A DNA stretch of 64,000 bases from Flavobacteriales bacterium UBA4466 (GCA_905182895.1 CAJJDD010000002.1:46620-110619), one strand, 5' to 3'. Positions 367 to 63,822 are shown, counted from the stretch's first letter. Translations and numbers: made by a program. The notes: generated from the letters alone by a model not told the origin.

Positions 367-422
367 GTTACAAGTTTGAATTGTAAAGGGGAAATAAAAT
401 CAATTCATTAGCTTTGGGGTTC

Positions 423-2733: not shown

Positions 2734-2855
2734 TTCAATTGAGACTGCGAAGAGTTCATTATTTAGACTCAATTTTTTATAGATTTCACTACCAGTATTC
2801 GTTATAATTTCGAGTTATAATTTTGAGTATATTTCTAAAAAAAAAACAAGTCCAG

Positions 2856-3821: not shown

Positions 3822-3830
3822 TCGTTTCTT

Positions 3831-4838
3831 TTGATTAAGTATATTTTAGGAATAGGGGTGGCTTTTATGTTCGCTAATTTTTTAATTGTCCACGACTCCA
3901 AAGAGGATGAAAGTTTGATCATAATTCCTGTAGGGTTTCCTGAAATAGATTTTCCAGAAGATAACTTGCCAAGTGTAGAAAGAATAAATTTAGGTAAAAG
4001 ACTTTTTTTTGACACTCTAATGAGTAAGGATTTTAGTGTTAGCTGTGCCAGTTGTCATAAACCGCATTTGGCTTTTTCTGATAATTTACGGTTTAGTATA
4101 GGGTCAGATTTATCAGAAGGAAAAAGCAACGCCCCTTCTCTAGCGAATGTTGCTTACAGTCCCTATTTAAATAGAGATGGTGGGGTTCCAACCTTAGAAA
4201 TGCAGGTGTTGGTACCTATTCAGGAACATCTAGAATTGGATATGAATATTTTAGAAATAGCTGAGAGGATGAATGAAGATCCGAGCTACATAGATATGAG
4301 CATGATAGCCTATAACCGAGTTCCTGATCCGTATGTAATCACGAGAGCTCTGGCTAACTTTGAAAGGACGCTTATTAGTGGACAAAGTAGATTTGATCAG
4401 TATTATTACCAAGGTGATAAGAAGCAGTTAACTAAAGAAGAGAGAAAAGGAATGGATCTCTTTTTTAGTGATAAAGCGCAGTGTAGCTCGTGTCATGGTG
4501 GGTTTACCTTCACGAATTATGCATTCGAGAATAATGGACTCTATGAGCAGTACATAGACTCAGGAAGAATAAGATTGACAGCAGAAGAGTCCGACAGAGC
4601 CCTATTTAAAGTCCCTACGTTAAGAAATTTAGAATTCACCTCTCCTTATATGCATGATGGAAGCATGGAAACGATAGAGGAGGTTGTAGAGCATTACAGT
4701 AACAGTATTGCAGCGCATAAAAACCGCTCTATAAAATTAAAGCCTTTTCATTTTTCTAAAAAGGAAAAAGAACATTTGGTAGCCTTTTTAAAGAGCCTAA
4801 GCGATGAGAAATTTATAGAAAAGCAGTCCGTAAGATGA
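3831..4838 (+). CDS. Di-haem cytochrome c peroxidase family protein (CCP/MauG/MbnH-like)
   Basis: Two CxxCH haem motifs (CASCH, CSSCH). Conserved FKVPTLRNLEFTSPYMHDG block. N-terminal hydrophobic signal. The stop overlaps the next start (ATGA at 4835). Confidence 0.85.
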   Translation: MIKYILGIGVAFMFANFLIVHDSKEDESLIIIPVGFPEIDFPEDNLPSVERINLGKRLFFDTLMSKDFSVSCASCHKPHLAFSDNLRFSIGSDLSEGKSNAPSLANVAYSPYLNRDGGVPTLEMQVLVPIQEHLELDMNILEIAERMNEDPSYIDMSMIAYNRVPDPYVITRALANFERTLISGQSRFDQYYYQGDKKQLTKEERKGMDLFFSDKAQCSSCHGGFTFTNYAFENNGLYEQYIDSGRIRLTAEESDRALFKVPTLRNLEFTSPYMHDGSMETIEEVVEHYSNSIAAHKNRSIKLKPFHFSKKEKEHLVAFLKSLSDEKFIEKQSVR

Positions 4839-8180: not shown

Positions 8181-8239
8181 AATCATCAATGAGTACACCA
8201 TTTTATAGTTGTTTATTTACAGAAACAAAAACATATACT

Positions 8240-9508
8240 ATGAGAAAAAAGTTCATTTTTACCTTTGCTACGCTTATAATTTGCTTTTCTCTTTCTGCTC
8301 AAACATGGTATCAAATAGACTCCACGACAGATAGAGAGTTAAAGACTATTCAGTTTATTTCTGATGAAATTGGATTCATCGGAGGGGATAGTATTCTATT
8401 AAAAACACTAGATGGTGGAATTAGCTGGAATGAAATAGTCACCGATTTAGGTGGTGTTGAGTGGGTTCAATACTTAGATGTATATGATCTTCATTTTTTT
8501 GATGAAAACCATGGATATGTTATGTCAGGTCTATATGGTGCTATGCTAGAAACATTCGATGGAGGAATAACGTGGGCTAGTGTGAACATATCTTTAGGTT
8601 TCTGTCAGCAAGCCAGTCTTTATTTTGAAAGCGAGGATTACGGATTTGCAGGTGGAGGAGGGTGTTTTTCAGGCCACTTTATAGAAAAATTTGTGGATGG
8701 AGTATTGACACCAGTAGTGTTCCCAGTTGGTTGGTCGGGAACGGATTATGTGACTACCATTAACTTTAAAAATCCAGAGTTAGGATTTGCTGGTACCGTA
8801 GAGGGGATATTATTAAGAACCACGGATGGTGGAGGTATATGGGACACTATTCCTAACTTGGCCACAGGCTATGCGATTACAGATATAGATTTTGCCGGTG
8901 ATTTAATTAGAATTTCTCACCACAATATCCAGGAGTGGAGTTCTATGACAAGTATCGATGATGGGTTGACCTGGCAGGTTGATTGGGAAATCGGTTCATT
9001 CTTTTACCCTAAATTAAATTCATTACATACTACTTCGGAAGGCCTAGCATACACAGCTGGAGAAATAGATAACTTTGATGGTCAGGAGGGAGTTATTTTT
9101 GAAAGAACAGCTTTTTTCTGGAATTCAGTGCCAGTAGAAAATAGAATAAATGATATAGAATCTCATTCGGGTGCATCTGTTTTTGCGGTAGGAGATAATG
9201 GTTCTATCTATACCAATCAAGCCGACTTGGCCAGTAATATTGGCGAGCCTCAAGCTAACCCAATTCGTGTTTACCCTAATCCTGTTTCGGTAGGCGAGGA
9301 GTTAACCATAGAAAACCCTAAGACAAGTGTATTTTCAGTTCGTCTTTTTGACATTCAAGGAAAGGAAATAGCGAATAAGAATAAAACGACTTTAAACCAG
9401 GAAATGTCTATCTCTACTGAAGGACTGGAAAGAGGTGTTTACTTGATTAAGGTTTATGAAGGAAACGTGATGGTGCCTATTTCTATTCGGAGGTTGGTGG
9501 TTAATTGA
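8240..9508 (+). CDS. BNR/Asp-box repeat (Ycf48/sialidase-like beta-propeller) protein with T9SS C-terminal domain
   Basis: ATG at 8240 gives a signal peptide (MRKKFIFTFATLIICFSLSAQ). Repeated S/T-x-D-G-G-x-(S/T)-W boxes (TLDGGISW, TFDGGITW, TTDGGGIW, IDDGLTW). CTD is IRVYPNPVSVGEEL...GVYLIKV. Confidence 0.7.
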   Translation: MRKKFIFTFATLIICFSLSAQTWYQIDSTTDRELKTIQFISDEIGFIGGDSILLKTLDGGISWNEIVTDLGGVEWVQYLDVYDLHFFDENHGYVMSGLYGAMLETFDGGITWASVNISLGFCQQASLYFESEDYGFAGGGGCFSGHFIEKFVDGVLTPVVFPVGWSGTDYVTTINFKNPELGFAGTVEGILLRTTDGGGIWDTIPNLATGYAITDIDFAGDLIRISHHNIQEWSSMTSIDDGLTWQVDWEIGSFFYPKLNSLHTTSEGLAYTAGEIDNFDGQEGVIFERTAFFWNSVPVENRINDIESHSGASVFAVGDNGSIYTNQADLASNIGEPQANPIRVYPNPVSVGEELTIENPKTSVFSVRLFDIQGKEIANKNKTTLNQEMSISTEGLERGVYLIKVYEGNVMVPISIRRLVVN

Positions 9509-9941: not shown

Positions 9942-12900
9942 ATGAAATTCATACTTGGCATAATGATGCTTTTTTTACCGCTAATTTTCACAGCGCAGAT
10001 TAGTCTAAACGAATTATCTGCCAAGGGAGGTGTTGTAAATATGGGGGGGGATGAAGACTGGTTAGAGATTATAAATACCGGGGCTGAGTCTCTCTTTTTA
10101 GCAGACTATTATTTGTCTGATAATGCAGATGATCTTCAGAAATGGAATATGCCGGCATATACACTTACTCCAGGTGAGATACTGCTTGTGTTAGCCTCAG
10201 GAAATAATGTGGGCAGTGGATCAGGTGTTTGGCAGTCTTTCGTGCTGGCAGAAAACACATGGAAATATTTACCAGGAACTACAGAGCCTTCTTTAGATTG
10301 GAATTCATTAGATTTTAATGATTCTGCTTGGGAAGAAGCTTCGGGAGGGTTTGGCTATGCCGATGAAGATGATGGAACAGAGCTAGAAGGATTTCCTTCG
10401 GTATATATTAGAAGGACTTTTCAGGTGTCAGACGCTTCGGCAATCTCTGAAATGATTTTACATGCAGATTATGATGATGCTTTTGTGGCCTATTTGAATG
10501 GAACAGAAATCGCTCGTTCATCAAACATAGAAGGATTTCCACCAGCGTACGATTCGTATGCCACTATAGACCACGAAGCCAATCTTTATGAAGGTGGTAT
10601 TCCCGAAATGTATACGCTGAGCCCAGCAGAGATTAATGTTTTAGTTCAAAATGGTGATAATGTATTGGCTATTCAAACACACAATGTTTCAGCTGAAAGT
10701 TCTGATATGAGTAGTAATTTCTTTTTGAGTGGTTTACTCGATTCTTTTAATCCATCATATTTACCTCTTCCAACTTGGTATCAACCTTTTGTGAATTCTT
10801 CATTTTTCGAGACTAATTTCAAGTTAAGCCCAGGTGAAACTGTGTTTGCTACCAGTGTATTTGGAGATATTACAGATTCAGTTACGATACCAGAAGAGTT
10901 ATCAGGTGGGCTTTCTTATGGAAGAGAGCCAGATGGAACAGGTCCATGGTGCTATTTTGATGTATCCTCTCCAGCAGTTGCTAATGCAAATAGTTGGTGT
11001 TATGCCGGAATAGCAGAAGAACCTACTGTAAGTTTACCTTCAGGATGGTACACCTCAGACCAATTGTTAACTGTAGACGCACAATTTAATGCAGTACGAT
11101 TCACTTCAAATGGAGATGCTCCTACTTTAGATTCGCCCTTATTTATTGAAGCAGAGGTAGATGAAAATATTTCTTATTCATTCAGGTCATTCTCTCAGCA
11201 GAATCTCCTGCCTAGTGTGGTTGTAGATAGAACATACATTTTGGACGAAGATAATTATGAGCTTCCTGTATTCTCTATCCACACCGATGAGGCCCACCTT
11301 TGGGATTGGGAAGATGGTATCTATGTATATGGTCCTAATGCAGACTTAGATAATTATATTAATGGCAGTAATTTCTGGGAGCCATGGTCACGTTTTTCTA
11401 GAGTGGAATTTTTTAATGGAAATAAGGAGCTAAAAGCAGAAGAATATTTAGACCTAGAAATTCACGGAGGATGGAGCAGGGGAGAGAGTCAAAAGTCTTT
11501 TCGGTTTGATTTTAAGTCTGCTTACACTGGAAATTTGGAAGAGTCTCTGTTTTCTCAAAAACCGTTTATAGAGGACGTAAATAACATTAACCTCAGAGCA
11601 GGGGGTCAGCACCTCTGGACAGATAAAATCCAAGATGGTCTTTTTTCAAGAGTAGTAAATGATCTAAATCTAGACAATATGGCTTACGAGCCATGCTTGC
11701 TCTATTTAAATGGAGAATTTTGGGGTGTTTATGCTATGCGTGAAAAAATGGATGAGCACTATGCAGAATCCAACCATGACGTGAATTCTAGTGAAGTAGA
11801 CCTATTAAATTCGTGGGGAGTTTTAGAGGGAACAGACGCTCACTTTATAGAGACCTTTGAAGTCTTAATGCAGGCCAGTTCTAATCTTTCTGAGTTTTAT
11901 CAAGTGGCTGATAGCAGGTTAGATTTAGAGAATTATATGGATTACTTTATAGCAGAAACTTATCTGCAAAATAAAGATTGGATGGGCATAGAATGGGGGT
12001 TAAACAACGTGAAATTATGGAGGCCTCAGACAGAAGGAGGAAAATGGAGGTACATGATGTATGACCTAGATTTTGGGTTTTCTTTTCTATGGGGTTCTGT
12101 TGAGGATAATTTTATAGCTAAAGCAAAAAACCCACCTTATCCGTCTATGCACTCGGAGTTGTTTAATAAACTGTTGACCAATAACCAGTTTAAATGTGAG
12201 TTCGCTCAGCGCTATGCAGATGTAATTAATACAGTATTTCAGCCATCTTATTTCACCGAAAAAAAGGATGAGATAGTAAGCCAGATGGAAGGTGCTATGA
12301 CCATTCATGCAGATAGATGGGCTGAAAACGTACCTGTGGAACAATGGTATTTAGATGTCAATCAAATAGCAAACTATAATACATCTCGAATTCCTACGGC
12401 TAGAGCGCATGTAAATGATGAATTGAACTTAGGTGGTCAAACAGTAATGACTTTTAACGTACTTCCAGAAGGAGCAGGAACCATTCAAGTAAACACGATA
12501 GAGCCAGAATCATTTCCATGGACTGGCGTATATTTCCATGGCTGCCCAGTTCAGATTATAGCCACGCCCAATGAAGGTTTTGTTTTTGATTCTTGGAATG
12601 CCAATGGCATAATTACAGAAGGCTCAGGAGAATCTGTCTTACTAGAAAATTTATTCCAAAACGATACATTCACAGCCAACTTCTTCACTGAGGGAGTAGA
12701 CGTAACAGAAATAGAAACTGTTGTAAATTTAGAGGTGTTTCCTAATCCTACGAATGGATTTACCACCTTAAGTTATGAGTCATCTATAGTAGAAGATGTT
12801 CAAATAGCGGTCTATGACATGGCAGGAAAGCAAGTTTTTTATGAGCAAGTGATGAAAGGGAATAGAGAATTAATATTTCCTATAGACTTAACCTTCTTGA

Positions 12901-12970
12901 AAAGGGAATGTATTTAGTAGAATTGAAGTCTGACTTTAACATAATTTCCACAAGAGTAGCGTTGCAATAG
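9942..12970 (+). CDS. Lamin-tail-domain plus CotH kinase family protein with T9SS C-terminal domain; last ~25 codons are in another frame
   Basis: Signal peptide. LTD-like N-terminus (LNELSAKGG...DWLEIINTGAESLFLADYYLSD). CotH core (LEIHGGWSRGESQKSFRFDF...CLLYLNGEFWGVYAMREKMDEHY). CTD starts at LEVFPNPTNGFTTLSY. The track ORF stops at 12917 (..LTFLKRECI), but a shift near 12895 reads LEKGMYLVELKSDFNIISTRVALQ-stop (TAG 12968-12970), the expected CTD ending. Confidence 0.8.
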
Positions 12971-34025: not shown

Positions 34026-36333
34026 TTATTTAGATTTCAATTTAATTCCAATGAAAATGGTTCTAGGTTGAGAAGGACCATACACGAAATTACTGTCTCT
34101 ATTTTTACCTATATCAAACTGATCTTGGTAGGCATTCAAAATATTCTTCACTCCTGTGTAGAGCTCAATTTTAGAATTTATCTTTTTCAATCCGATAGAA
34201 TACGCGAACTTGAAGCTCACTTCAGAAAAAGAAGCTGAACTAATTATTTCATCCACAGTTTGGTTCGGAGCACCAGCAAAATGCGGGACTAACATACTTC
34301 CGGTATAGATGTAATTCATGTTGGCGTTAATCCGTTTATTCGGAGTAAAGCTTAGCGTAGCAAAACCGTATTCATTGGGAGTTCTCACAAATTCTTTGAT
34401 TCCATCTAAGCCATCTATGTAGGCCACTTCCTCATCAAACTCTGAAGTTTGGATTGTAATTCCAGCCTCTAATTGAGCCTTTCTATTGTAATTGGCTCTT
34501 AGTTCTAGTGTACCTCCAGTAACGGTAGCTCCCTGCCCGTTTTGCTTTTCAAATAATTCACCGAACTCATCTTCTCCAATAGGAGCCAGATAGAAGGCTC
34601 TGTTTAATCTGGTATAAAATCCTTCAAGTGTGAACCCTAGAATGAACTTATCTGTAGGCATATCATAATTTATATGAACCACTAAAACTACTTGATATTT
34701 CTTCTCTCAAATCATCTGCTAAAGATATTCTTGAAATTCCTCCACCAGCAAATGCAATATGTAAGTCCGTATCAAATGCTTGAGGCGCTCTAAAACCTGA
34801 TGAGTAAGAGATTCTAATTTGTGAATTCGCTCTTAAGTTATAAAGTAAAGAGAGTCTTGGACTAGCCACAAAATTATGTATGTCCATTCTCACACCAGAC
34901 AGCAGAGTGATATTCTTTGCTATTTTCCAGTCGCTTTGCAGAAAAGTACCATAATTCCTGGTCGTTTGGTCTATCAAGTAATTGTATGCTGGAATAGCAT
35001 CACTTACTTCATCATAGATAAACTCAGTACCTAGAGTGAATACATTCTCTCCAGTTAGAAACTTGTTTATTTTATGATTCAGCTGCACACCGGTATTAAA
35101 AGTAGTTACATCAGAAGTTCCATAAGGAGGGTTTTCTAAATGTTCGAGTAGCGCTTCATTTTCGTCAGGAATAATTCCTGTGTAGTGATCTCTGACTGTG
35201 GATTGCCATGCAGCGTAGGTAATAAGGCTCGACTTATTCTTATTAAAATTAATCTGATAATCTGCACTTCCCATCCACACGTTATGCGTTCTTTCTTCAG
35301 ACTGAGCTGCTAAGTAAGCAGGTTTTTCGGTCACCATTTCGCCACCGAATCTATATTCGTTTAGGTTACTCAGGCTTACTTCCAGTTTCTGATTGTCGTT
35401 CGGTAAAAAGAACATATTCATCCCTATAGAAGTGTTTTCTATCAACGGTATTTCAGAAAAATCATCTCCATTATGGTCGTAGAACCCTCTATTTCTATTA
35501 TTTATAAAAAGAGAGATGCCAGAATTGGACGACTTAGAAACTAAGGTAGCGTTGGCTAGAGTTTGATTATCTCCAGTCTGCTTGTTGATATTCTGGTAGT
35601 TGTAATTCAACTCATAGCTGTTCTTTCTTGGAGTTTTGGTAATTACATTTACAGTTCCGCCTATAGCGCTAGAACCATATAATGAAGAACCTCCACCACG
35701 CACCACTTCTATGCGCTCTATCATATTTACAGGAAGCTGTTCCATACCGTAAAGCCCTGTAAGCGGACTGAAAATAGGTCTTCCGTTAATCAATATTTGT
35801 GAATATCCACCCGCTAGTCCATTCATTCTTAACTGAGTGTAGTTACAGGTTTGACAGTCGTTTTCTACCCTAAGTCCCGGTTGAAACTTCAGTCCCTCAG
35901 ACAGGTTACATGCCTGCACATTATCTAGCGTTTTGCTGCTCAGCACATTGACTATCACCGGTGAGTCTGTTTGTCTTTTATATGTCTTAGTTCCAGAGAT
36001 AACTATTTCATCTAAATCCATAGTTTGTTCAGTAAGGGAGAACTCTATATTTAAATTGGGAGAGTCGCTGCTCAAGGTGATTTCTTGAGAAACCAGTTCA
36101 TAGCCTATATAGCTTGCTGTGATTGTATATGTTCCATAGGGTATGTCATGCAGATGCGCTTTACCACTAGAGGTAGTAACAGAAGAAACGCTTAGTTCTT
36201 CTATGCTGAGCGTAGCAAATGCAACAGGTTCAGACTCCTTTTTTACACTAGCATGGATGTCTCCTGTTTGACAGAAAGCTATAGGTGAAATTAAGATGAA
36301 AACATACAGGAGTATGTTTTTTAGGGAAATCAT
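34026..36333 (-). pseudogene. TonB-dependent outer-membrane receptor with carboxypeptidase-regulatory-like N-domain, one frameshift
   Basis: Signal peptide, CarbopepD_reg-like segment (GTYTITASYIGYE), a plug (VVRGGGSSLYGSSAIGGTVNVITK) and a barrel ending in ...IFIGIKLKSK. The pieces overlap at about 34663-34682. Confidence 0.85.
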
Positions 36334-41337: not shown

Positions 41338-42330
41338 TTACATTTCTCTGTTAGTGTCAAAATTCTCTAAGTACTCAGCAACTCGTTTTACAAATGTTCC
41401 TCCAAGCATTCCGTCTACTACTCTGTGGTCGTAAGAGTGTGAAAGGAACATCATGTGTCTGATTCCAATTAAGTCACCGTGCTCAGTTTCTATTACTGCA
41501 GGCTTCTTTCTTATAGCTCCAGCGGCCATAATAGCTACTTGAGGTTGGTTAATAATAGGGGTTCCCATTACATTACCGAATGTCCCCACGTTGGTGAAGG
41601 TGTATGTCCCACCTTGTATATCTTCTGGTTTTAGAGCGTTTGTTCTAGATCTGTTTGCTAAGTCATTAACTTTCTTCGCCATTCCGACAAGATTCAGCGT
41701 ATCCGCATCTTTAATCACCGGAACGATAAGATTTCCTGTAGGGAGTGCTGCTGCCATTCCTATGTTAATGTGCTTTCTCTTAATGATTTTAGTCCCGTCT
41801 ACAGAAACATTTACCCCTGGCATATCCTTAATAGCCTTTGCGATAGCTTCAATAATAATAGGAGTGAAGGTGATTTTCTCTCCTTCTTTCTCTATGAATT
41901 TGTCTTTGACTTTGTTTCTCCAATTAACCACATTGGTCATGTCTACTTCTACATACGAAGTTACATGTGGACTTACTCTTACAGACATGACCATGTGGTC
42001 AGCTATAAGCTTTCTCATTCGGTCCATTTCTACGATCTCATCTCCACTTCCTATAGAAATCATAGGAGCTTTGGGCTGAGATGTAGGTGGCTTAACTTTT
42101 TCAGGTTTGCTTTCGGTTGCCTTAGGAGTAGGACTGGCGTTCTGGTTCTGAGGTGCAGCTACTGGAGCCGCAGAGCCCTTGTTTTCGATGTAACCTAAAA
42201 TATCAGCTTTAGTTACTCTGCTTTCTTTGCCTGTCCCGTTAATTCCGTCTAATTCGGTTTGTGAAATACCTTCGGTTTTAGCTATATTCTTCACCAGAGG
42301 AGAATAAAACCGGTGAGAGAGTTTCGTGTT
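41338..42330 (-). pseudogene. 2-oxo-acid dehydrogenase E2 (dihydrolipoamide acyltransferase) lacking its N-terminal lipoyl domain
   Basis: Peripheral subunit-binding domain (RFYSPLVKNIAKTEGISQTELDGINGTG), a Pro/Ala-rich linker and a catalytic domain with SHSYDHRVVDG. The frame is closed by TAG at 42331-42333. I found no lipoyl (TDK) domain in any frame upstream. Confidence 0.8.
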
Positions 42331-52788: not shown

Positions 52789-53586
52789 CTACTCCAAGCC
52801 TAGTTTCAACATCTTTATTAAGTGGTGTGAATCTTTTAGCTCTAGAAATGGATACTCAATCCTGCTCAGAAACAGGCCATTCGGAAGGGCTGGCTGCTTG
52901 TCTTTCAGTTGTTTTTTTCGCTTCAAAATCTCCTCAAATTCTTCCAAGGTCATTTTACCGCTTCCCACCTGTAATAAGAAGAAAACACAGTAGCGAACCA
53001 TACCTCTGAGGAATCCGATTACTGGTGATGGTAAACCGCAGTCGTCCCTTATCTTCATTGATGAATAATTCAGAATTCGTTACTCTGCATAACGTGTTTT
53101 TATATACATCGGGCTGTTTGCAAAGCGGTCTGAAATCTTTCGTTTCTAAGATAAGCCCCGCAGCCTTTTTCATGAGGTCGAAGTCCAATGTTAAATCCTC
53201 ATAGAACGAGCTGTAGCGAATAAGAATAGGATCCTTCTTTAAATGAATAAAATAGTCATAGGTACGAGATACAGCGCTATGTCTAGCATGTTGCTTATTG
53301 TCTACTTCAAATATTTCAAAAACAGCAATCGTATCAGGTAAATTCTTGTTTAGGCGGAACATTAAATCAAATGAAGGGTCTTCATCCAATTCTATTTGAA
53401 CCACATACTGACTAGAGTGAACACCTGCATCAGTTCTTCCACAGCCGTTTGCAGTCACTTCTTTCTTAAATACTTTAGAGAGAACATCCTCTATAACCTT
53501 CCTGTACTGTGTTTCGAGGTTTAGTTTGTCTCTGCCAACCTCTGTATGGGGTGCCGTCAAATCCTAGGTGTATGAAATAGCGCATC
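52789..53586 (-). pseudogene. truA: tRNA pseudouridine(38-40) synthase TruA, two frame breaks
   Basis: ATG at 53586 gives MRYFIHLGFDGTPYRGWQRQ. ORF 52955..53560 carries the catalytic GCGRTDAGVHS. ORF 52789..53058 carries FLRGMVRYCV...PNGLFLSRIEY. Confidence 0.85.
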
Positions 53587-53815
53587 TGTAAATTATAACA
53601 AGAGTAGGCTTAATTTTTATGAATTAGCATTAAATGGCTAAACTAATTTCAAATTATCTCTCTTTTTTCAAGGTCTTTATATACCTATCAGTTTGTGCAG
53701 TTAAACTCGGTCCTTAAGCTCATTTCAGCCAATAATATTTGGTTAAAATGAGGTTAGAAATTATGATTACCATCCAGTACAAATTTTATGAGGCACTGTT
53801 TCTATTACTATCAGC

Positions 53816-55975
53816 TTACGGTCCCGTGATAGGGTTGGCGCTCACATTAAAAGTAGGTAAGAAATTCTGGTACAATTCAGAATTAGTGATGACATCAACT
53901 GAAACAATGTTGACTAAATCATTTGGGATCTCTGCTACAGCCTCAATTGTGAATACTTTGGTGTCGTCCCAGTTTTCTGAATCCCAGTATAACATTGTTG
54001 GTGTTATTGAAACGCTGGATGCAGAGCTTATTAAGTTCACAGTCAATCCAATATCTGTTCCCTGTAGGCTTATAATGGGATCTGTTAATGTGACTGAAAC
54101 TTCATAGGTCTCTCCAATCTGAGTGAAGTTTATATTCTTAATGTCAAAGTTGATTATTTCTGTTACATCAGAATCATATTCACAAGACCCATCATCTGTA
54201 TTAGCTAAAGCATTATAGTTTGTAGCTGTAGAATCTATACAGCCTAATAAAGTTGATGTTGAACATGGAGTACCGAAAGCCCCAAGGAAGCCACCTAAGT
54301 CACTTACGTTTACATTACCGTCACCAGAAAAATCTCCAGGACACACAGAGGCTACACCAGCATCAAAAGCCTCTTGGTTGTCTGACGCTATGTCTGGGCA
54401 CTCAAATACACAAGTCCCATCATCTATCGTGACTGCCGAATCGTAGTTCGTTGCTGAGGGATAAGTACAGCCACTATTACAGGAAATAAATTCACATGAC
54501 CCATCATCACACGTTGCAACAGAATCGTAGTTACATGCCGTTGAATCTATGCACCCATTAATTAGTTGACATGAATCATCGTCATACAGCGCATCTGGGT
54601 CGAAGTTACATGCCATTGGATCCATACAACCACAAGCACTATTGTTGGCGCCGCCTTCTACATAAAAGGTTCCAATAAGAACGTCCCCGGCATTCGAATC
54701 ATCCCAGAAAAGGTCTAACAAAAAGCCTTCTGAAGATTCTACAAAAACACCTCCATAAACATTCTCCCATATCCAGCCGTCCCCATAGCTATCTGAGAGT
54801 TCGAGAGTATAAGTACCCTCAGACAATGAAATAGTTTGTCCTATTAAGTAATATCCTTCTAATTCTGGATCGCTTCCATTAACATCAAACTGGAGCTGGT
54901 CAGGAAACTCTCCATCTGCGACGATAAGACTACCATCTTCAACGTACATCAAATTAGCTATTAGATTCCCTGCTTCATCATAAATATTTGCAGATGCCTC
55001 GGCAACATAATAGTCAAACTCGTAATTGAATGACACCAACGATGGTCCAGCACATGAGCAATAATAACATGATCCATCATCGCATCCTGCGGTCGGATCA
55101 AAATTACATGCTATAGAATCAGCACAACCTGGGTAGGTGCATAATCCATCATCACAGATTGCAGCTGAATCATAGTTACACGCTGTTGAATCAGTACATC
55201 CATCAGGCAATACACATGATCCATCATCGCAACCTGCGGCTGGGTCATAGTTACACGCTGTTAAATCAGTGCATCCATCAGGCAATACACATGATCCATC
55301 ATCGCAACCTGCGGCTGGGTCATAGTTACACGCTGTTAAATCAGTGCATCCTGGATAGGTGCATAACCCATCATCACAAGTTGCTGCTGAATCATAGTTA
55401 CACGCTGTTAAATCAGTGCATCCATCAGGCAATACACATGATCCATCATCGCAACCTGCGAATAAATTGTAGTTGCATGCTGCAACATTGTTACACCCAG
55501 GATAGGTGCAAAAGCCATTATCTATAGTTGCTTGTGCATTGAAGTTACACGCAGTCATATCAGTACATCCTAAATTAGGGTCACAGTTTTCAGTTGTGTA
55601 AGGATTAAAATTTGGATCTAAACTTTGCCACATGCCACACTGGTTGATTACACCCAAATTTTCAACCACCCCTAGATTAATCACGTCCCCGTTATTATCT
55701 ACAGATCCAGTTGGCTCATTTACAACCGCACCCGAATCATGGATCAAAAAATACCCCTCATTATCAATGAAACCATCATTATAAATAAATCCAAAATTTT
55801 CAATACTCGCATAATTCTCTATGACTCCTGATAAGTTGATGATACTACCATCAGGTTGAATCTCAATTATCGCAGTTCCATAAGCTGATATATTCCCAAT
55901 GTTTTCAATGGTTCCGGTGACAACTATAGATGCTTCATTAACAAGTGTTGCATTCGTTGTGCAAGGTGTAATCAA
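53816..55975 (-). CDS. Block 3 of the Cys-rich modular secreted-protein locus
   Basis: It has no signal peptide or ATG of its own; the track start is a TTG right after a stop cluster. Order of elements: xGxIxN beta-helix-like repeats, QCGMW, seven 23-25-aa C-T-D-x-T-A-C-N-Y-D...C-D-D-G-S-C units, a SYGDGW module, four more Cys units, a dockerin-like CPGDFSGDGNVNVSDLGGFLGAFGT, and a Cys-free tail. There is no T9SS CTD. Confidence 0.65.
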   Translation of the reverse strand: MITPCTTNATLVNEASIVVTGTIENIGNISAYGTAIIEIQPDGSIINLSGVIENYASIENFGFIYNDGFIDNEGYFLIHDSGAVVNEPTGSVDNNGDVINLGVVENLGVINQCGMWQSLDPNFNPYTTENCDPNLGCTDMTACNFNAQATIDNGFCTYPGCNNVAACNYNLFAGCDDGSCVLPDGCTDLTACNYDSAATCDDGLCTYPGCTDLTACNYDPAAGCDDGSCVLPDGCTDLTACNYDPAAGCDDGSCVLPDGCTDSTACNYDSAAICDDGLCTYPGCADSIACNFDPTAGCDDGSCYYCSCAGPSLVSFNYEFDYYVAEASANIYDEAGNLIANLMYVEDGSLIVADGEFPDQLQFDVNGSDPELEGYYLIGQTISLSEGTYTLELSDSYGDGWIWENVYGGVFVESSEGFLLDLFWDDSNAGDVLIGTFYVEGGANNSACGCMDPMACNFDPDALYDDDSCQLINGCIDSTACNYDSVATCDDGSCEFISCNSGCTYPSATNYDSAVTIDDGTCVFECPDIASDNQEAFDAGVASVCPGDFSGDGNVNVSDLGGFLGAFGTPCSTSTLLGCIDSTATNYNALANTDDGSCEYDSDVTEIINFDIKNINFTQIGETYEVSVTLTDPIISLQGTDIGLTVNLISSASSVSITPTMLYWDSENWDDTKVFTIEAVAEIPNDLVNIVSVDVITNSELYQNFLPTFNVSANPITGP
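55058..55570. repeat. Array of seven 69-75-bp coding repeats (CxDxxACNYDxxAxCDDGxC units)
   Basis: Hand-counted from aa 136-305 of the block 3 translation. Confidence 0.9.
55201..55350. repeat. Two base-for-base identical 75-bp tandem units
   Basis: 55201-55275 equals 55276-55350 (CATCAGGCAATACACATGATCC...AATCAGTGCATC), read directly. Confidence 0.95.
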
Positions 55976-55996
55976 TGTCTAAACCATCCCTTATAA

Positions 55997-56839
55997 TCAC
56001 ATTTGATCCAATTGAACAGTAGCATCGTTCCCCGGACCGGGAAATCCATTATCCCAGTTACCTTCAGTGTGCCAGTCTGAACTTATGACACCGGTAAAAA
56101 TGGTTCCGCCAGTTCCTCCTGAACAACTTGGGTTTGATGCACAATCTGGGTCGTCGCAGTCTATCAGTCCATCACCTTCATTATCTATACCGTCTGCACA
56201 ATCGCATTCGTAAAGGGTACAATCAACGCATTCAGAGGCAGATACACAATCTGAATCGTTACAGTCTATCTGTCCATCACCATCATTGTCTATACCGTCT
56301 GCACAATCGCATTCGTAAGCAATGCAATCGACACATTCAGGGGCAGATGCACAATCTGGATCGTCACAGTCTATTAGTCCATCACCTTCATTATCTATAC
56401 CGTCTGCACAATCACATTCGTAAAGGGTACAATCAATTTCATTCTGGCAAGCGGCAGTTTCCAAAGGATTTCCATTTGGATCTGAACCATTCCAAAAACC
56501 GCATTGGTTGATGAGCCCACTATTTTCAACAGCCCCATCATTAAAAACCTCCCCACTGTTATCTATAAATCCTGTTGGCTCATTTACAACCGCACCCGAA
56601 TCATGGATCAAAAAATACCCCTCATTATCAATGAAACCATCATTATAAATAAATCCATCATTATAAATACTCGCATAATTAGAAATGACTCCTGATAAGT
56701 TGATGATACTACCACTTGGTTGAATCTCAATTAGCGCAGTTCCATAAGCTGATATATTCCCAATGTTTTCAATGGTTCCGGTGACAACTATAGATGCTTC
56801 ATTAACAAGTGTTGCTTTCGTTGTGCAAGGTGTAATCAA
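55997..56839 (-). CDS. Block 2 of the Cys-rich modular locus
   Basis: TTG-initiated ORF in the same frame as blocks 1 and 3. Order of elements: xGxIxN repeats, QCGFW, three 35-aa CxxYECDCADGIDN(D/E)GDGxIDCxDxxC units, then SGGTGGTIFTGVISSDWHTEGNWDNGFPGPGNDATV and stop. Confidence 0.6.
   Translation of the reverse strand: MITPCTTKATLVNEASIVVTGTIENIGNISAYGTALIEIQPSGSIINLSGVISNYASIYNDGFIYNDGFIDNEGYFLIHDSGAVVNEPTGFIDNSGEVFNDGAVENSGLINQCGFWNGSDPNGNPLETAACQNEIDCTLYECDCADGIDNEGDGLIDCDDPDCASAPECVDCIAYECDCADGIDNDGDGQIDCNDSDCVSASECVDCTLYECDCADGIDNEGDGLIDCDDPDCASNPSCSGGTGGTIFTGVISSDWHTEGNWDNGFPGPGNDATVQLDQM
56117..56431. repeat. Three 105-bp coding repeats (35-aa Asp/Cys-rich calcium-binding-like units); a second set lies at 56981..57295
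   Basis: The period of 105 was measured on CGTCTGCACA landmarks (56191, 56296, 56401). Confidence 0.9.
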
Positions 56840-56860
56840 TGTCTAAACCATCCCTTATAA

Positions 56861-58573
56861 TCACATTTGATCCAATTGAACAGTAGCATCGTTCCCCGGA
56901 CCGGGAAATCCATTATCCCAGTTACCTTCAGTGTGCCAGTCTGAACTTATGACACCGGTAAAAATGGTTCCGCCAGTTCCTCCTGAACAACTTGGGTTTG
57001 ATGCACAATCTGGGTCGTCGCAGTCTATCAGTCCATCACCCTCATTATCTATACCGTCTGCACAATCGCATTCGTAAAGGGTACAATCAACGCATTCAGA
57101 GGCAGATACACAATCTGAATCGTTACAGTCTATCTGTCCATCACCATCATTGTCTATACCGTCTGCACAATCGCATTCGTAAGCAATGCAATCGACACAT
57201 TCAGGGGCAGATGCACAATTTGAATCGTCACAGTCTATCTGTCCATCACCATCATTGTCTATACCGTCTGCACAATCACATTCGTAAAGAATACAATCCT
57301 CGCCATCTTCACCTGTGCAAGATCCCCAAGATCCCCAAGAACCATTTGCGCAGGTTCTCGTTTGCGTTCCGCTATTATTGTTTCCGCAGGCTATTGTTTC
57401 TTGAGAGCCATTTGTGCAAACATCTGGGTCATTACAACTTCCCCAAGCTCCGCTTGTGCAGGTTTGAGTTCCGTTGTTGTTTAAACCGCAAGCTTGTGTT
57501 GCGCCTTCTGTACAATCAGAATTTTCATCAATTTCACTATCACAGTCATCATCAATATCGTTGTTTGGTATTTCGATCGCTCCCGGATATATAGTATCGT
57601 CACTGTCGTTGCAATCTAAATCTGAGTAGTATCCATCTCCCAATCATGTTCCATCCTGATTCTAAGTCTCTACTTAAACACCATTTATCTATGGTATTCT
57701 CAACACAATCACCAATTGAATATATGCAAGACCCATCGTCTACTTCTTGCAGTCGAATCGTAGTTCGTAGCAGCTGAATAGGTACAACCAGCGCAAGAAG
57801 TAAACTCACAAGAACTGTCGTCGATTGTTGCAGTGGCATCGTAGTTACATGCCGTAGTATCTGTACAACCTGGCCCAGCACATGGTGTGTAGAGGTTAAA
57901 TATTGGATCGCCTCCACCCCAGAAGCCGCATTGGTTGATGGTCCCGCTCGTTCTCGATGGTCCCGTCGTTATTGATGCTCCCGCCGTGTTGTCGATGGTC
58001 CCGTGTTGTTGATTTCCCGAGTGTTGACATCCCGCCGTTATTGATGCTCCCGCCGTTGTTGTTGTTGATATTCCCGAAGTTGTTGAAGATGCCCCCGTAG
58101 TTGACGATGGTCCCGAAGTTGTTGAAGATGCCCCCGTTGTTGAAGATGCCCCCGTTGTTGTCGATGGTCCCGTCGTTGTCGATGGTCCCGTCGTTATAGA
58201 TGGTCCCGCCGTCGTTGAAGATGGTCCCGCTCGTTGATGATGGTCCCGCCGTCGTTGTAGATGGTCCCGTCAGTTGGTAGATGGCCCGCCGTTCTCGATG
58301 GTCCCGTAGTTGTTGATATTCCCGTAGTTGTAGATGGTCCCGCTGTGAGATTTCGATTGATGATTCCCGTCGTTGAAGATGTCCCATCCGTATGATAACA
58401 GTGGATCCAGAGGGAATAGTGGCGTCATTGCCCATGGCAGGAAGCCCATTGTCCCAGTTTCCAGCCTCAGCCCAATCGTAACTTATGACACCCGTAAAGG
58501 TGGTTTGAGAGAGGGCTTCTGTCGTAAATAAGATTGTAAAAATCAATAATATAAATGCAAATAATTTTTTCAT
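56861..58573 (-). pseudogene. Block 1 of the Cys-rich modular locus; the only block with a start and signal peptide, and heavily frame-scrambled
   Basis: ATG at 58573 (MKKLFAFILLIFTILFTTEALSQ), then TTFTGVISYDWAEAGNWDNGLPAMGNDATIPSGSTVII. GTIxNxG heptad repeats follow and need several frame changes. Next come QCGFWGGGDP, two CTDTTACNYD-type units, a MopE-like DGYYSDLDCNDSDDTIYPGAIEIPNNDIDDDCD, a WGSWGSC segment and three 35-aa units. Pieces in the ORF track: 57896..58594, 57600..57917 and 56861..57643. Confidence 0.6.
57931..58390. repeat. GC-rich ~21-nt repeats (GATGGTCCCGxCGTTGTTGAx on the plus strand; GTIxNxG on the minus strand)
   Basis: Read directly. More than 15 units contain GATGGTCCCG or GATGCCCCCG. 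Confidence 0.85.
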
Positions 58574-58642
58574 TACGGGATTGTTTGAGAGCAACTATTA
58601 AGTTACAATTTAAATAAGTCTAATCTATTAGATTTCATTCAA

Positions 58643-58650
58643 CAAAAATA
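58643..58650 (-). promoter_or_regulatory. Candidate -7 box (TAttTTTG) for the modular locus
   Basis: The reverse complement of CAAAAATA is TATTTTTG, about 70 nt upstream of ATG 58573. Confidence 0.25.
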
Positions 58651-58781: not shown

Positions 58782-61700
58782 TTAATCAATCAATATCTCA
58801 TCTACAAAAATCCATGGAGTTTCTCCTGCGCTTATATGCCAGCTTGGCATAGGACCCCAATTAACTGCCTTTACTCTTACATAGCGCGCTAGAGTGAATA
58901 TTTCTGCTCCTGCTAATCCATGTTCCACATCTTCTTCTAGTGGCTCTAAAGAGAATGTAATGCTGGAGTATGGCTCCCAGATTTCTTTGTCTGCAGAAGT
59001 TTCTATTACTACTGCGCTTGGTGGGAAAATCCAAGGCTTGGTATCTTTTAAGTAGCTGAGGTGAATAGATGATATGGCTGTTTTAGCTCCCAAATCCACT
59101 ATGGCGTTTAGGTCTTCTCCCCAGTACCCTTGGAAATCACCGCTTTTATAATCAGGCCTAGATCTTATTCCATCTATCAGCGCCATGTCTCCACCACCAG
59201 TGTATTGATTGTTATACTCAGAGAAAAGTTCTATGGCCCAGTCGGCTTTTCTTTTTATAACTATAGCTTTCACTATTCCGCTAGCAGAGGCCACTTGTTT
59301 TTGGCTCCTAGCTTCTATCGTCATGGATTCATTTATGTTAAATGGCTCGGTATATAATTCCCAATCAGTCGTATCTATTACTGCAGTAGTTCTATACTCT
59401 GTCCGTGCTCCTTTTTCAGAAGAGATGGTCACGGTAGTTTCATCTAGAAAACTTCTCTCAACAGTAATGGTGGGAGCCATGGTAATATCAAAACCATCTA
59501 TTTTAGAGGTAGGGCGGTTTGTTTGGTGCCGTTCCCCATGATTGTATTTGGGACTAGGGGACAGTTCAAATGACAAGATGCTCCGCCTTCCATAATCATA
59601 TCATGAGTGATGTATGAGTTTGGCCAGTCGGCTCCGTTATACCTCACGCTAGAGATATACCTTCTTTTCTCTTTAGGGGCTATTTCTTCTAGTTCCATCT
59701 CCAGCATAGAAGTAGAGATAGAAAACGTATTTCCGTTTTCTAGATGAATGGCAGCACTGTCTATAATAGGCGCGCTCAGGGCATATTCCCTGCTTCCTGG
59801 AGTTACAGAGTATATTCCCATAGCAGAGAGTACGTACCAGCTGCTCATCTGGCCGCAGTCTTCATTTCCACTGAGACCATCGGGAGTAGGAGAGTAAAGG
59901 TCCCTTAAAATTTCTTGAGTTCTGTACTGCGTTTTCCATGGCTGTCCAGAGTAATTATATAAGTAGGCCATGTGATGGCTAGGCTCATTTCCATGGGCGT
60001 ATTGGCCTATTAAACCGGTAATATCTGGCTGGTGTCTTCCTGCTAAATCCATAGGGGCTGTAAAGAGTTTATCTAGCAGTTCATTGAATCTTTTCTCGCC
60101 TCCTACATGGGTTATTAATCCATCCACATCTTGAGGAACGAAGAAGCTGTACTGGTAAGAATTGGCTTCTGTAAAATTGAAATTTACCTCAGAAGGATCG
60201 AACGGTGAAATCCAATCTCCATTTCTCTTGGCTCTGCAGTAACCAATTTCTCCATCTATAGTATTTCTATAATTCTGTGCACTTCTGTAATAGGTCTCTG
60301 CCACTTCCATGTTTCCTAGCGCTTCAGCAAAAATGGCTATGCACCAGTCGTTATAGGCATACTCTAAGTTCTTAGACACAGATTCTCCTTCATCTTCCAT
60401 AGAGATATATCCTTTCTCTCTAAAATGCTCTTTTCCGAATTCTACTGCTTCTGAGGTTTTTACCATGGCTTCCAACGCCTTCTGCGTATCGAAATCAGTA
60501 ATCCCCTTCATGTATGCGTCTACTATTACAGGCACAGCATTATACCCTATCATGCAGTGCGTGTAATTTCCTGCGAGCTCCCACATTGGGAGGTCTCCTC
60601 CCTGATCGTACATCTTCAGAAATGAGTGTATGAAATCTTTAGTTTTATCTCTCTGCGTAATGGTGTAAAGTGGGTGCGAAGCTCTAAATGTATCCCATAG
60701 AGAAAATACCGTGTACTGCTCATGGTCAGTGGCAGAGTGTGTTTCCATATCCACGCCTCTGTATCTTCCGTCTACATCTGTAAACGTATTCGGTACGGTG
60801 TAGGAGTGATAAAGTGCCGTGTAGAAATTTTGTAGTATGGCAGTGTCCTGCGTTGCAATATCTATTTTGCTCAATTCCTCTAACCACGCTTTTTTAGCCG
60901 CTGTTTTATATCTCCCAAAATCCCAATGCGGAGCTTCTGTTTTTAAGTTTTGCAACAAACTTTCAATATCTACTGGTGAAAGTTTTTCTTTTACATTAAA
61001 TCAGCTCCTTGATTAAAGACTAGCGGGAACACAGGAACCATCTCTTGGTAATTTCTGATTTCTCCATTATCCAGTTCCTCATAAACGATTTCGAAGGTCT
61101 GATCTGTATAGGTAAATGGTCTGGAAAACTCTGCTACGAAGTAAACATGCTGTTCTTCTGCCCATTCTTTAGAAACTCTCATTCCGGCTACAGTAGAATC
61201 ATTCAACGGATAAAATTGATATTCAATTAGCGGGTCTCTGTGTGCTAAATCTATAAATACAGTGAAACTATCAGCTTGATTAGTTAAGTGGTATTTGTGA
61301 ATTCCCACTCTGGTGGTAGTCGTTAATTCGGTTTCTATATTCTGGTCATCCAGAAAAACAGAGTAGTATCCAGGAGAGGCTTTTTCAGTTTCTTTTCGGA
61401 ATGCACTTCTGTACCTCTCCCCCCAGTTTTTTCCTTGATGCACAGCGCTATTTGTAGGCGACAGAAGAACATCACCATAATCAGAGATTCCAGTTCCCTG
61501 CAGGTGTGTGTGACTGAATCCGTATATCAAAGAATCTGAATCATGGTATCCACCGCAGCCATCCCATCCCGTAAGCCGCGTGTCTGGACTTAACTGCACC
61601 ATCCCGAATGGCATAGTAGCTCCTGGGTAAGTATGGCCGTGACCTCCAGTTCCTACGAATGGATTTACGAAGTCACATACGGTAGGTTCTTCTAGAAGTT

Positions 61701-61794
61701 CTGCTGCTGGTGTGGTTTTCTTATTCGCAGTGCACGAAGCCAGAGCTAAGAGCGCTAGTATAGTTAGTAATGAAAGTGAGGTGAGAAATTTCAT
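58782..61794 (-). pseudogene. GH92 family alpha-mannosidase with C-terminal carbohydrate-binding-type extension, two frame breaks
   Basis: Signal/lipoprotein (LLALASC). GH92 N-domain GTGGHGHTYPGATMPFGMVQLSPDT. Catalytic part with HGNEPSHHMAYLYNYSGQPWKTQ. The join at 60958-60991 reads ADLNVKEKLSPVDIESLLQNL if one A is added to TTAATG. The third piece, 58782..59576, is a beta-sandwich-like tail. Confidence 0.85.
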
Positions 61795-62410: not shown

Positions 62411-63822
62411 ATGAGGTCAATTTTACTACTTGTACTGTTTCTAGGAATGGCGAATTTCTCTTCAGCACAAGAATCTGCAGATGCTTTAAGCGCTTTCGTG
62501 AATAGTGAAGAACTGAAAAATGCCAGTGTAGGGTTTTCTCTACTAGATCCATCTGGAAAAGAAATCCAGTCCTATAATTCCGAAAAAAGTTTGGCGCCAG
62601 CTTCTACGGTAAAGCTTTTAACGAGCATCACAGCTTTAGAGGTTTTGGGGTATGACCATAAGTTCGTAACCACCTTAACTATACAAGGGACGGTTATGGA
62701 AGGAAAGCTAATAGGGAATGTTATTGTGAAAAGTGGAGGAGATCCTACGTTAGGAGCATCCGATTTTAAAAATCATTATGGAGACTTTGTGGGTGAATGG
62801 GTAGAAGCTATAAAAGCAGAAGGCATTACAGAAATAGACGGTAGGATTTTAATTGATGATGGCGCTTTAGAAGGAGACAGAAATGCGGGATCTACTGCAC
62901 TGAATGATGTAGGAAATTATTATGGTGCGGGAGCGCCAGGGTTTTCGTTTATGGATAATGAGTTTACCGTATTCTTCAATACTGCCGGAGTAGGAGCGGC
63001 TAGTGTAGGTAGTAAAGACAGAGCCAGCACTTCCTGATTCCGTAGAGTTAGTTAATGAGGTAAAAGTAGGAAGTAAAAGTGGAGACAATGTGATTATCTA
63101 TTCACTTGATGGAGGAAATCAAGTTTTCTTTAAGGGGGAGCTGCCGGCCAATAAAAAGGGTTTTCAAGTTAGAGGATCTATTCCCGATGTGACAGGTTTT
63201 GCTCAGGCTTATCTTCAAAGGGCTATAGAAAATTCTGGAATATCTATCACGGCAGTAGAAAAGAAGGGCCCGTTGTTTATGCATTCCAAAGAACTAGTGC
63301 GAACTAAATCTCCTGCGCTCATAGAGATACTTAAAGTACTCAATAAGAAAAGCGTAAACAGCTATGCAGATGTCCTGCTAAAACACATAGGGAAAGCCAG
63401 TGGAAGAGCAGCTACATTTGAAGGGGGCTCAGAAGCGGTGAAGGCTTATTGGAAGGAGAAAGGGTTGGATACCAGTGGGATTTATATAGAAGACGGAAGC
63501 GGTCTTTCTAGAAAAAACAATATCACGGCTAAATTTATGACCGGTTTATTGCAAAGTCAGGTAGAGGATGAGCAGGTAAATAAGATGATGAATGAAGCTT
63601 CTTTGTCCTTCTTCTGTGAAGTCCATGTGGGGCGAGGCTTTCAGAGGTCAGATTCAGGCTAAGAGCGGATATATAGGGAGAGTAATGGCATACGCTGGTT
63701 ATATCATTAGGGATGGAGAAAAATATCCTTTCTACCTTACCGTAAATAATTTTTCGGGTAGTGATTCTAAAATGAGAAAGTTAATGGGAGCGGCGTTAAG
63801 AGGAGTGAGACTTGAACTTTAG
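62411..63822 (+). pseudogene. dacB: D-alanyl-D-alanine carboxypeptidase/endopeptidase (PBP4, peptidase S13), two frame breaks
   Basis: Signal peptide, SxxK (PASTVKLLTS), SGLSRKNNITA and KSGYIGRVMAYAGYI (KTG-like). The three ORF pieces 62411..63037, 63090..63662 and 63592..63822 are in three different frames. Confidence 0.85.

Follow-up and report, generated by a model that had tools for sequence, protein, structure and literature searches.

A probable single gene for a modular secreted protein of ~1,590 residues, its frame broken mainly by likely assembly errors, in Flavobacteriales bacterium UBA4466

The locus described here lies in a stretch of DNA of 64,000 nucleotides (nt), called the window in its full length, from Flavobacteriales bacterium UBA4466 (GCA_905182895.1 CAJJDD010000002.1:46620-110619). 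Between the gene for a GH92 glycosidase and truA, positions 58573-53816 of the minus strand probably constitute one gene (at a probability of about 0.7), the frame of which is broken mainly by assembly errors. Five minus-strand open reading frames (ORFs) were found in 58594-53816 (Table 1), and those of 260, 280 and 719 amino acids (aa) are in the same frame as the ATG at 58573. The encoded protein of ~1,590 aa would begin with a Sec signal peptide, continue with three blocks that each consist of a head and its cargo, and end with a conserved tail of ~117 aa. In block 1, head 1 would be followed by two Cys modules, a mosaic patch, a MopE motif, a Cys/Gly-rich stretch and three acid repeats, while block 2 would comprise head 2 and three acid repeats, and block 3 would comprise head 3, seven Cys modules, a SYGDGW module and four Cys modules with one EF-hand-like loop. 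The stop-separated layout would then reflect consensus errors of an error-prone assembly, in which the neighbouring genes are broken likewise. A preliminary description had presented the locus as three same-frame blocks 24 nt apart. The shared frame and the 24-nt offset were found again, but block 1 is not a single ORF and each gap holds three stops within a stretch of ~70 nt that is read in a shifted frame. The single signal peptide with its ATG at 58573 was read directly in the translation, and the ORF listing agrees with the earlier statement that blocks 2 and 3 have neither a start codon nor a signal peptide of their own.

At both junctions 24 nt separate the first base of the stop from the start of the next ORF, and the stops in each gap are TGA, TAA and TAG. 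The ~70 nt around each gap are open in another frame and encode SIGSNVIIRDGLDIDYTLHNE, as they do in intact relatives. Alignment of the DNA with four intact sequences revealed a 1-nt deletion at both junctions, which turns TTCCAATT into TTCAATT, and a 2-nt deletion 72 nt downstream of it, again at both. The two breaks are identical because both lie inside a near-perfect direct repeat of ~450 nt (55900-56355 and 56764-57219, with 2 mismatches), the copies of which would be affected alike by a systematic miscall or by cross-mapped polishing. When 15 small indels are corrected, 11 of them in block 1 and 2 at each junction, the 1,590 codons from 58573 to 53816 are free of stops, and since so few and such small repairs suffice, the one-gene signal is far beyond chance. 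Programmed recoding, in the form of ribosomal frameshifting, stop read-through or an alternative genetic code, is an extremely improbable way of joining the blocks. All blocks do end in the frame of the signal peptide, but with three different stops within 24 nt at each junction no alternative genetic code can rescue them, at least 13 and in all ~15 heterogeneous shift sites would be required that have no slippery motif in common, and the shifts are absent from relatives.

The search for intact homologous ORFs that the preliminary description had suggested recovered both one-head and two-head genes in relatives. Over block 3, the 719-aa ORF shares 88-90% amino-acid identity with the longer relatives. 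The proteins P0001 (MEJ6795186.1, from the NCBI metagenome-assembled genome (MAG) GCA_037625835.1) and P0002 (TARA) are each encoded by a single ORF, in which a signal peptide is followed by head A, three acid repeats, ...GNDATIPIGSNVIISDGLDIDYNLFNEGNIEINE..., head B and block 3, and the junction between blocks 2 and 3 is read through as one ORF in these two as well as in P0245 and P0248. The 90% cluster of the window ORF contains complete proteins of 786/793 aa, with the signal peptide and block 3 only, and of 1,074 aa, with two heads. Five assemblies (L001, L002, L020, L021 and L062) place the gene between intact neighbours, GH92 (1,002 aa) on one side and truA (264 aa) on the other, and the gene itself is intact there, with 786/793 or 1,074 aa. 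Together with the continuous ORF obtained after 15 small repairs, the read-through of the block 2-block 3 junction in relatives bears out the earlier proposal of one giant ~1,590-aa protein with a broken frame. Among the GTDB representative genomes, which were scanned with the 719-aa ORF, only distant relatives turned up, with identities of at most 50%. One candidate for an independent frameshift, P0251 (728 aa, starting right after the junction), was set aside, as its contig has a 100-N scaffold gap at that place and is in frame on both sides.

The other proposal of the preliminary description, an expressed gene followed by promoterless cassettes, would make blocks 2 and 3 silent copies for antigenic or phase variation by recombination. 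Their want of a start codon, a promoter-like motif and a signal peptide would fit this, head number varies by strain, and the heads have long identical stretches through which they could recombine. Nevertheless it is very unlikely, given that heads 2 and 3 are contiguous in one coding sequence of relatives, that the breaks are indels of 1-2 nt with the conserved peptide retained in the shifted frame, that the blocks are adjacent and collinear instead of forming a separate array of partial copies, and that neighbouring genes are broken alike. Unlike the silent cassettes of pilE/pilS or vlsE, blocks 2 and 3 are continuous with the signal peptide in a single ORF of P0001, P0002, P0245 and P0248.

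The condition of the neighbouring genes points in the same direction as the intact relatives. The flank of the window from 64000 to 58384 (5.6 kb) is 98% identical to L001, L002 and L021, which like L020 and L062 are independent short-read assemblies, and differs from each of them by the same 15 single-base indels, while L001 and L021 align with each other over 5.4 kb at 99.1% identity, with 49 mismatches and 0 gaps. Five 1-nt insertions and ~8 substitutions are crowded into 55 nt of the GH92 gene (59582-59528), which also has a 1-nt deletion at 60995. The two halves of the peptidase S13 gene correspond to positions 4-148 and 205-365 of the 444 in the Pfam profile, and the ORF that holds the barrel of the TonB-dependent receptor is followed by an overlapping ORF of 218 aa in another frame. 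Since these single-base indels affect conserved genes and are absent from three independent, near-identical assemblies, they carry the signature of consensus error; the alternative, very recent decay, would be implausibly broad. The indels are most likely errors and not recent mutations. Elsewhere in the window, the ORF of a 2-oxoacid dehydrogenase E2 (41338-42294, minus strand; 318 aa, GTG start) consists of the catalytic domain only, with no obvious lipoyl domain upstream; its frame may be broken too, or its start may have been called wrongly.

Table 1. Positions of the ORFs, modules and junctions of the locus and of other genes in the window.
Feature	Position	Strand	Remarks
ORF	57896-58594	-	232 aa, begins with the signal peptide
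ORF	57600-57917	-	105 aa
ORF	56861-57643	-	260 aa, in the frame of ATG 58573
ORF	55997-56839	-	280 aa, in the frame of ATG 58573
ORF	53816-55975	-	719 aa, in the frame of ATG 58573
TAnnTTTG match (Bacteroidota -7-like consensus)	58643..58650	-	77 nt upstream of the ATG
ATG and Sec-type signal peptide	58505..58573	-	MKKLFAFILLIFTILFTTEALS, then Q
Head 1	57919..58504	-	FTGVISYDW..GNWDNGLPAMGNDATIP, ~25 hexapeptide GxIxNx repeats (18-nt DNA period), ends NQCGFW
Two CxDxxACNYD...DDxSC-type Cys modules	57747..57918	-	in the frame of the head 1 end; repeat family D2 (57794-57870)
Mosaic patch, 107 nt	57640..57746	-	own frame, EVDDGSCIYSIGDCVENTIDKWCLSRDLESGWNMIG; both ends are frame changes
MopE-like putative metal-binding motif	57524..57640	-	GDGYYSDLDCNDSDDTIYPGAIEIPNNDIDDDCDSEIDE; PF11617
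Cys/Gly/Thr-rich stretch with AWGSC, SWGSWGSC	57317..57523	-	TSP1-like by eye only
Three 35-aa acidic double-disulfide repeats, end of block 1	57005..57295	-	CxxYECDCADGIDNxGDGxIDCxDxxC; NF033662, E 2.4e-20
Junction 1-2	56806..56879	-	stops 56863-56840; between 1-nt deletion at ~56879 and 2-nt deletion at ~56806 relative to intact relatives
Head 2	56492..56962	-	FTGVISSDWHTEGNWDNGFPGPGNDAT ... NQCGFW; predicted beta-solenoid; collinear with head A of L001/L021
Three acidic double-disulfide repeats, block 2	56141..56431	-	NF033662, E 1.7e-23
Junction 2-3	55942..56015	-	stops 55999-55976; 1-nt and 2-nt deletions on either side, as at junction 1-2
Head 3	55628..56098	-	FTGVISSDW ... NQCGMW; collinear with head B of L001/L021
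Seven tandem Cys modules of ~24-25 aa	55052..55570	-	GCTDxTACNYDxxAxCDDGSC; repeat families D2, D4, D7
SYGDGW module, ~130 aa	54650..55033	-	beta-rich; no named family
Four further Cys modules	54212..54631	-	single EF-hand/dockerin-like loop DFSGDGNVNVSDLGGFLGAFG at 54272-54343
Conserved C-terminal tail, ~117 aa, and stop codon	53816..54169	-	ends ...FNVSANPITGP; no recognisable T9SS sorting domain
truA (tRNA pseudouridine synthase)	52789-53600	-	split; two 1-nt insertions (53498, 53014), both unpaired, compared with L020, where the 264-aa gene is intact
GH92 alpha-mannosidase-family gene	58782-61794	-	three ORFs; single 1,002-aa ORF in relatives
Peptidase S13 (D-Ala-D-Ala carboxypeptidase)	62411-63662	+	two ORFs; indels at 63608 and 63007; 469-aa ORF in relatives
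TonB-dependent receptor	34026-36333	-	appears frameshifted; ORF 34663-36333 ends with the barrel at position 280 of the 436 in its profile
CotH-domain protein with T9SS C-terminal tail	414-2733	+	three ORFs: 414-1955, 1952-2149, 2095-2733

Read in three frames, block 1 changes frame at ~11 sites between 58391 and 57640. After GNDATIPSGSTVII, the GxIxN repeats, NQCGFW and the first Cys modules hop among all three frames at ~9 sites from 58391 to 57948 (the ~9 indels of head 1 are near 58391, 58383, 58285, 58270, 58232, 58030, 58003, 57985 and 57948), so that the NQCGFW motif and the first two Cys modules are in a frame other than that of the signal peptide, and two later changes follow at ~57748 and 57640. 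The density of breaks is several times that of the flank, and nine of them fall in the region of 18-nt tandem repeats (families D3 and D5 in head 1), which is hard to sequence. The mosaic patch matches L022:5974-6080 at 106 of 107 positions, while the sequences flanking it are unrelated; its source in L022 is an intact 648-aa ORF of the DUF1566 type, an unrelated gene on the JGI metagenome contig Ga0206129_10009596. The patch may be a mosaic left by recombination, an artefact of polishing, or a chimera. Right after the signal peptide, the window furthermore switches from L001-type sequence, which comprises the upstream region and the signal peptide, to L061/P0029-type sequence, and block 1 could be a real recombinant or a chimeric assembly, the latter being suggested by the 99% identity of the patch to an unrelated gene. 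The reconstruction of block 1 is supported by P0029 (562 aa, from the orthologous locus L061), in which a head of the type seen in block 1 is intact. Searches with the repaired block 1 and with the block 1 cargo returned only the P0029-type head and the source of the patch.

If block 1 (58390-56970) were a chimeric misassembly, a P0029-type allele of a co-occurring strain would have been joined to a fragment of an unrelated paralogue and to a duplicated acid-repeat/junction segment, and the true gene would be the two-head form of 1,074 aa. This is an unlikely outcome, although it would account for the switch of sequence type directly after the signal peptide, for a patch that is out of frame at both ends, and for the 3' 450 nt of block 1 duplicating the end of block 2; three heads occur in no other assembly found, and short-read scaffolds break in the repeat region. 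However, the protein search and the metagenome scan gave no near-identical source elsewhere for the segment with MopE and WGSWGSC (57640-57300), no shared k-mer that could mislead an assembler is visible at the patch borders, and once repaired, block 1 is open throughout and meets head 2 at the motif by which heads are linked in intact genes with two heads. For blocks 2 and 3, a chimeric block 1 is compatible with a single gene broken mainly by assembly errors.

Alternatively, the locus could be a genuine pseudogene, with real mutations, a three-head allele that is dead or recently inactivated, and a junction indel pair that was copied by duplication or gene conversion. The identical indel pairs do lie within a homogenised 450-nt repeat, and strain-variable surface-protein loci tolerate gene loss, the present locus differing between L001, L020 and L061. 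Such a history is nevertheless improbable, as GH92, truA, peptidase S13, the TonB receptor and the CotH gene have like single-base breaks and are intact in relatives of 98% identity, with 0 indels among these, and as the 1,590 repaired codons contain 0 nonsense substitutions and 0 large deletions. Several observations do weigh against a single gene broken mainly by assembly errors, some of them in favour of the pseudogene. The indel density is uneven, with ~11 in the 0.95 kb of block 1, 4 in the 3.15 kb of blocks 2-3 and 10 in 5.2 kb of flank, and the excess in block 1 over the flanks would suit a pseudogene. So would the second junction indel, which is embedded in a locally diverged, real-looking stretch with 6 substitutions in 21 nt, unusual for pure sequencing error. 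In GH92 and S13, the substitutions confined to the window show no clear excess of non-synonymous changes (16 synonymous to 14 non-synonymous, versus 17 to 9 among the short-read assemblies, a comparison that does not discriminate), and from the assembly sequence alone errors cannot be told from real, very recent mutations. Two of the frame changes in block 1 coincide with the ends of the patch and resemble a chimera or recombination junction more than a simple miscall, and neither the protein search with the repaired block 1 nor the metagenome scan with its cargo found an independent intact three-head gene. Finally, function and calcium binding are read from motif composition alone.

By inspection, the signal peptide consists of MKK, a hydrophobic core of 15 residues and a cleavage site ALS|Q, and the same signal peptide heads the intact relatives P0001, P0002, P0240, P0245 and P0248. 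A signal peptide followed by Q fits secreted proteins of the Bacteroidota. The promoter-like motif upstream is weak evidence: TAnnTTTG has one other match in 5.1 kb, at 55106, and none before heads 2 or 3, while ~2.3 would be expected by chance. As described previously, the xGxIxN repeats and the NQCG(F/M)W motif each occur three times, the motif at 57936-57919, 56509-56492 and 55645-55628. The heads follow a pattern of FTGxxxxxW..GNWDNGxP..GNDAT, then hexapeptide repeats, and NQCGxW at the end. In homologues, the head stands nearly always directly after the signal peptide and once per protein, and internal heads are peculiar to the GH92-truA locus. Of 1.84 billion proteins, a HMMER search with 120 aa of head 2 retrieved only 99 representatives (E <= 0.001), which marks this subtype of head as rare, and Pfam named no family for the repeat regions of the 99 matches. 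Plus-strand ORFs of 122-200 aa at 53739-54107, 55159-55527, 56128-56511 and 56992-57594 were considered as genes and rejected: they are His/Arg-rich and periodic and, judged by inspection only, seem to be antisense shadows of the repeats.

AlphaFold2 predicts the head to be a beta-solenoid. For an orthologous head, modelled from an alignment of 15 heads, it gave ~21 four-residue strands at a pLDDT of 84.8 and a pTM of 0.79. The model of the 719-aa ORF reached a pLDDT of 57.8 overall, was confident only in the part with the seven Cys modules (pLDDT 80-89) and was not used for a fold search. Autotransporter adhesins have a 19-residue repeat, compared with the 6-residue repeat of the focal head. 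A Foldseek search of the PDB with the head model matched only beta-helix proteins (TibA, Ag43, ice-binding proteins and bactofilin), none of them significantly (best E 0.08, TM 0.30). Like the beta-solenoid passenger domains of the self-associating autotransporter adhesins TibA (4Q1Q) and Ag43 (7KOH), the head is predicted to be a stack of short strands, but the focal protein does not have an autotransporter beta-barrel. Neither PF13229 nor PF05594 matched head 2 as a beta-helix at E <= 10, and in the 232-aa ORF Fil_haemagg scored 14.3 bits, below its cut-off of 21.5.

The Cys/Asp-rich cargo reported in the preliminary description is present in all its modules, and the MopE-like motif passes the cut-off of its family, but Pfam provides no match to TSP type 1, TSP type 3, dockerin or beta-helix. 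Residues 10-40 of the 260-aa ORF cover the whole profile of Cu-binding_MopE (PF11617; 1-30 of 30) with E 5.6e-08 and 33.3 bits, above the cut-off of 27. The acid repeats belong to NF033662, with 82.0 bits in the 280-aa ORF and 71.9 bits in the 260-aa ORF, each in 3 stretches, against a cut-off of 41. TSP type 1 (PF00090) was detected neither in the 260-aa ORF at E <= 0.1 nor in the isolated 77-aa stretch at E <= 10. TSP type 3 (PF02412) gave nothing in the five ORFs at E <= 0.1, the repeats being captured by NF033662 instead, and dockerin type I (PF00404) gave nothing at E <= 10 in a 55-aa segment, which has one DxxGDGxVNxxD loop and not a duplicated pair. The head, the CxDxxACNYD..DDGSC unit, the SYGDGW module, the WGSWGSC stretch, the dockerin-like loop and the tail had no match in Pfam or NCBIfam up to E <= 10, and a literature search under the name of the repeat found nothing. 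The earlier statement that the architecture is not a described family thus stands for the head, the CxDxxACNYD...DDGSC unit, the SYGDGW module and the tail, for which there is no Pfam or NCBIfam model, but the modules recur in thousands of uncharacterised proteins of the databases, with 6,437 matches at E <= 0.001. The SYGDGW motif is shared with P0122, with the product of ORF 1 of L022 and with the CotH protein at 414-1955 of the window, the N-terminus of which has a D.YGDGWNG module as in focal block 3.

Comparison with characterised proteins places the cargo only in part. NF033662 proteins share the acid repeats, but these make up only ~13% of the focal protein, and calcium binding in them is suggested by an acidic DxDxDG-like pattern. 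The repeats also weakly match teneurin-4 (7PLP, E 8.6e-05) in the C-rich domain of teneurins (PDB 7PLP, 6CMX), a marginal match over one short repeat. MopE of Methylococcus capsulatus (PDB 2VOV) is matched weakly (E 0.0035); the focal gene encodes a single 30-aa motif and not a MopE protein, and the start of this motif abuts the mosaic patch. Judging from motif composition, the small acidic, disulfide-rich cargo units probably bind calcium or another metal.

The locus ends, as had been noted before, without the sorting domain of the type IX secretion system (T9SS). The T9SS C-terminal domain (CTD; PF18962/TIGR04183) was found neither in the 719-aa ORF at E <= 0.1, nor in the tail alone at E <= 10, nor in any downstream frame, and the type B CTD had no match in the focal protein. 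Por_Secre_tail is present on two secreted proteins of the window, a BNR-like protein (8189-9508, plus strand) and a protein with CotH and lamin-tail domains (9942-12917, plus strand), which indicates that the organism uses the T9SS. Many homologues that share modules with the focal protein carry PF18962 as T9SS cargo does, but the focal protein and its close relatives have a different conserved tail. The same tail and end recur in P0029, P0240, P0245, P0248 and P0250, and since all complete relatives end in ...FNVSANxxTGP, the absence of the T9SS domain is native and not due to truncation. The constant tail is a candidate for an export or anchoring element, and export would follow a route that does not depend on a T9SS domain.

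At the GH92-truA site, alleles encode proteins of 562, 786/793, 1,074 and ~1,590 aa, in which the signal peptide and the tail are constant and the middle is variable. L061 is the orthologous locus of another strain, with 93% identity at the GH92 end and 96% at the start of truA. Between the surface-protein gene and truA, L061 (3548-4405) and L062 (6429-7286) have an extra gene for a 285-aa alpha/beta-hydrolase, which is absent from the window and from L020; as some strains hold this gene and others do not, the site varies between strains. In L062 (short-read scaffold ZHAN22-3 scaffold_80), a 100-N gap lies within the acid repeats of a two-head gene (2600-4100), with at least 4 acid repeats before the gap. 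The number of acid repeats varies, and assemblers fail at them. The closest counterparts are hypothetical secreted proteins of marine Flavobacteriales MAGs (P0001, P0240, P0245, P0248 and P0250), which have the same locus, signal peptide, heads, Cys modules, SYGDGW module and tail; the window differs from them by three heads instead of one or two, by the extra cargo of block 1 (MopE and WGSWGSC) and by ~15 frame-breaking indels where the relatives are intact. A comparable arrangement is that of the metagenomic islands of abundant aquatic bacteria such as Salinibacter ruber, in which cell-surface genes vary between strains (PMC2800850); at the focal site, likewise, one position between conserved genes has different surface-protein alleles in close genomes. 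Compared with those islands, the focal site is a single gene and not a multi-gene island, and its variation may partly be an assembly collapse of repeats. A bolder reading would make the GH92-truA site a hotspot of strain-level diversification, at which head-plus-cargo blocks are added, removed and swapped by recombination at the FTGVIS...GNWDNG...GNDAT junction, yielding alleles with one, two or three heads and alternative heads, with the three-head allele, its compensated junction frameshifts and its patch as a genuine inactivated or switched-off variant and the head as an unnamed hexapeptide beta-solenoid domain, but as a whole it is quite unlikely.

For the reading preferred here, that of one gene broken mainly by assembly errors, the consequence is one of caution. 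Since single-base indels are frequent in the window, any pattern in it that suggests a split gene, a cassette or a pseudogene should first be compared with relatives. The locus itself is a genuine gene for a putative surface protein, variable from strain to strain, in a marine lineage of Flavobacteriales that is abundant and uncultured, and its product is one of a large number of secreted modular proteins in marine Flavobacteriales that are uncharacterised. Its product would be a secreted or cell-surface, disulfide-stabilised binding protein of the adhesin type. The remaining interest lies in the polymorphism of head number and in the modules, namely the hexapeptide beta-solenoid head, the CxDxxACNYD..DDGSC unit, the SYGDGW module and the non-T9SS tail, which are unnamed but widespread. 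While no new mechanism is opened by them, naming and testing these modules would aid the annotation of thousands of hypothetical marine proteins.

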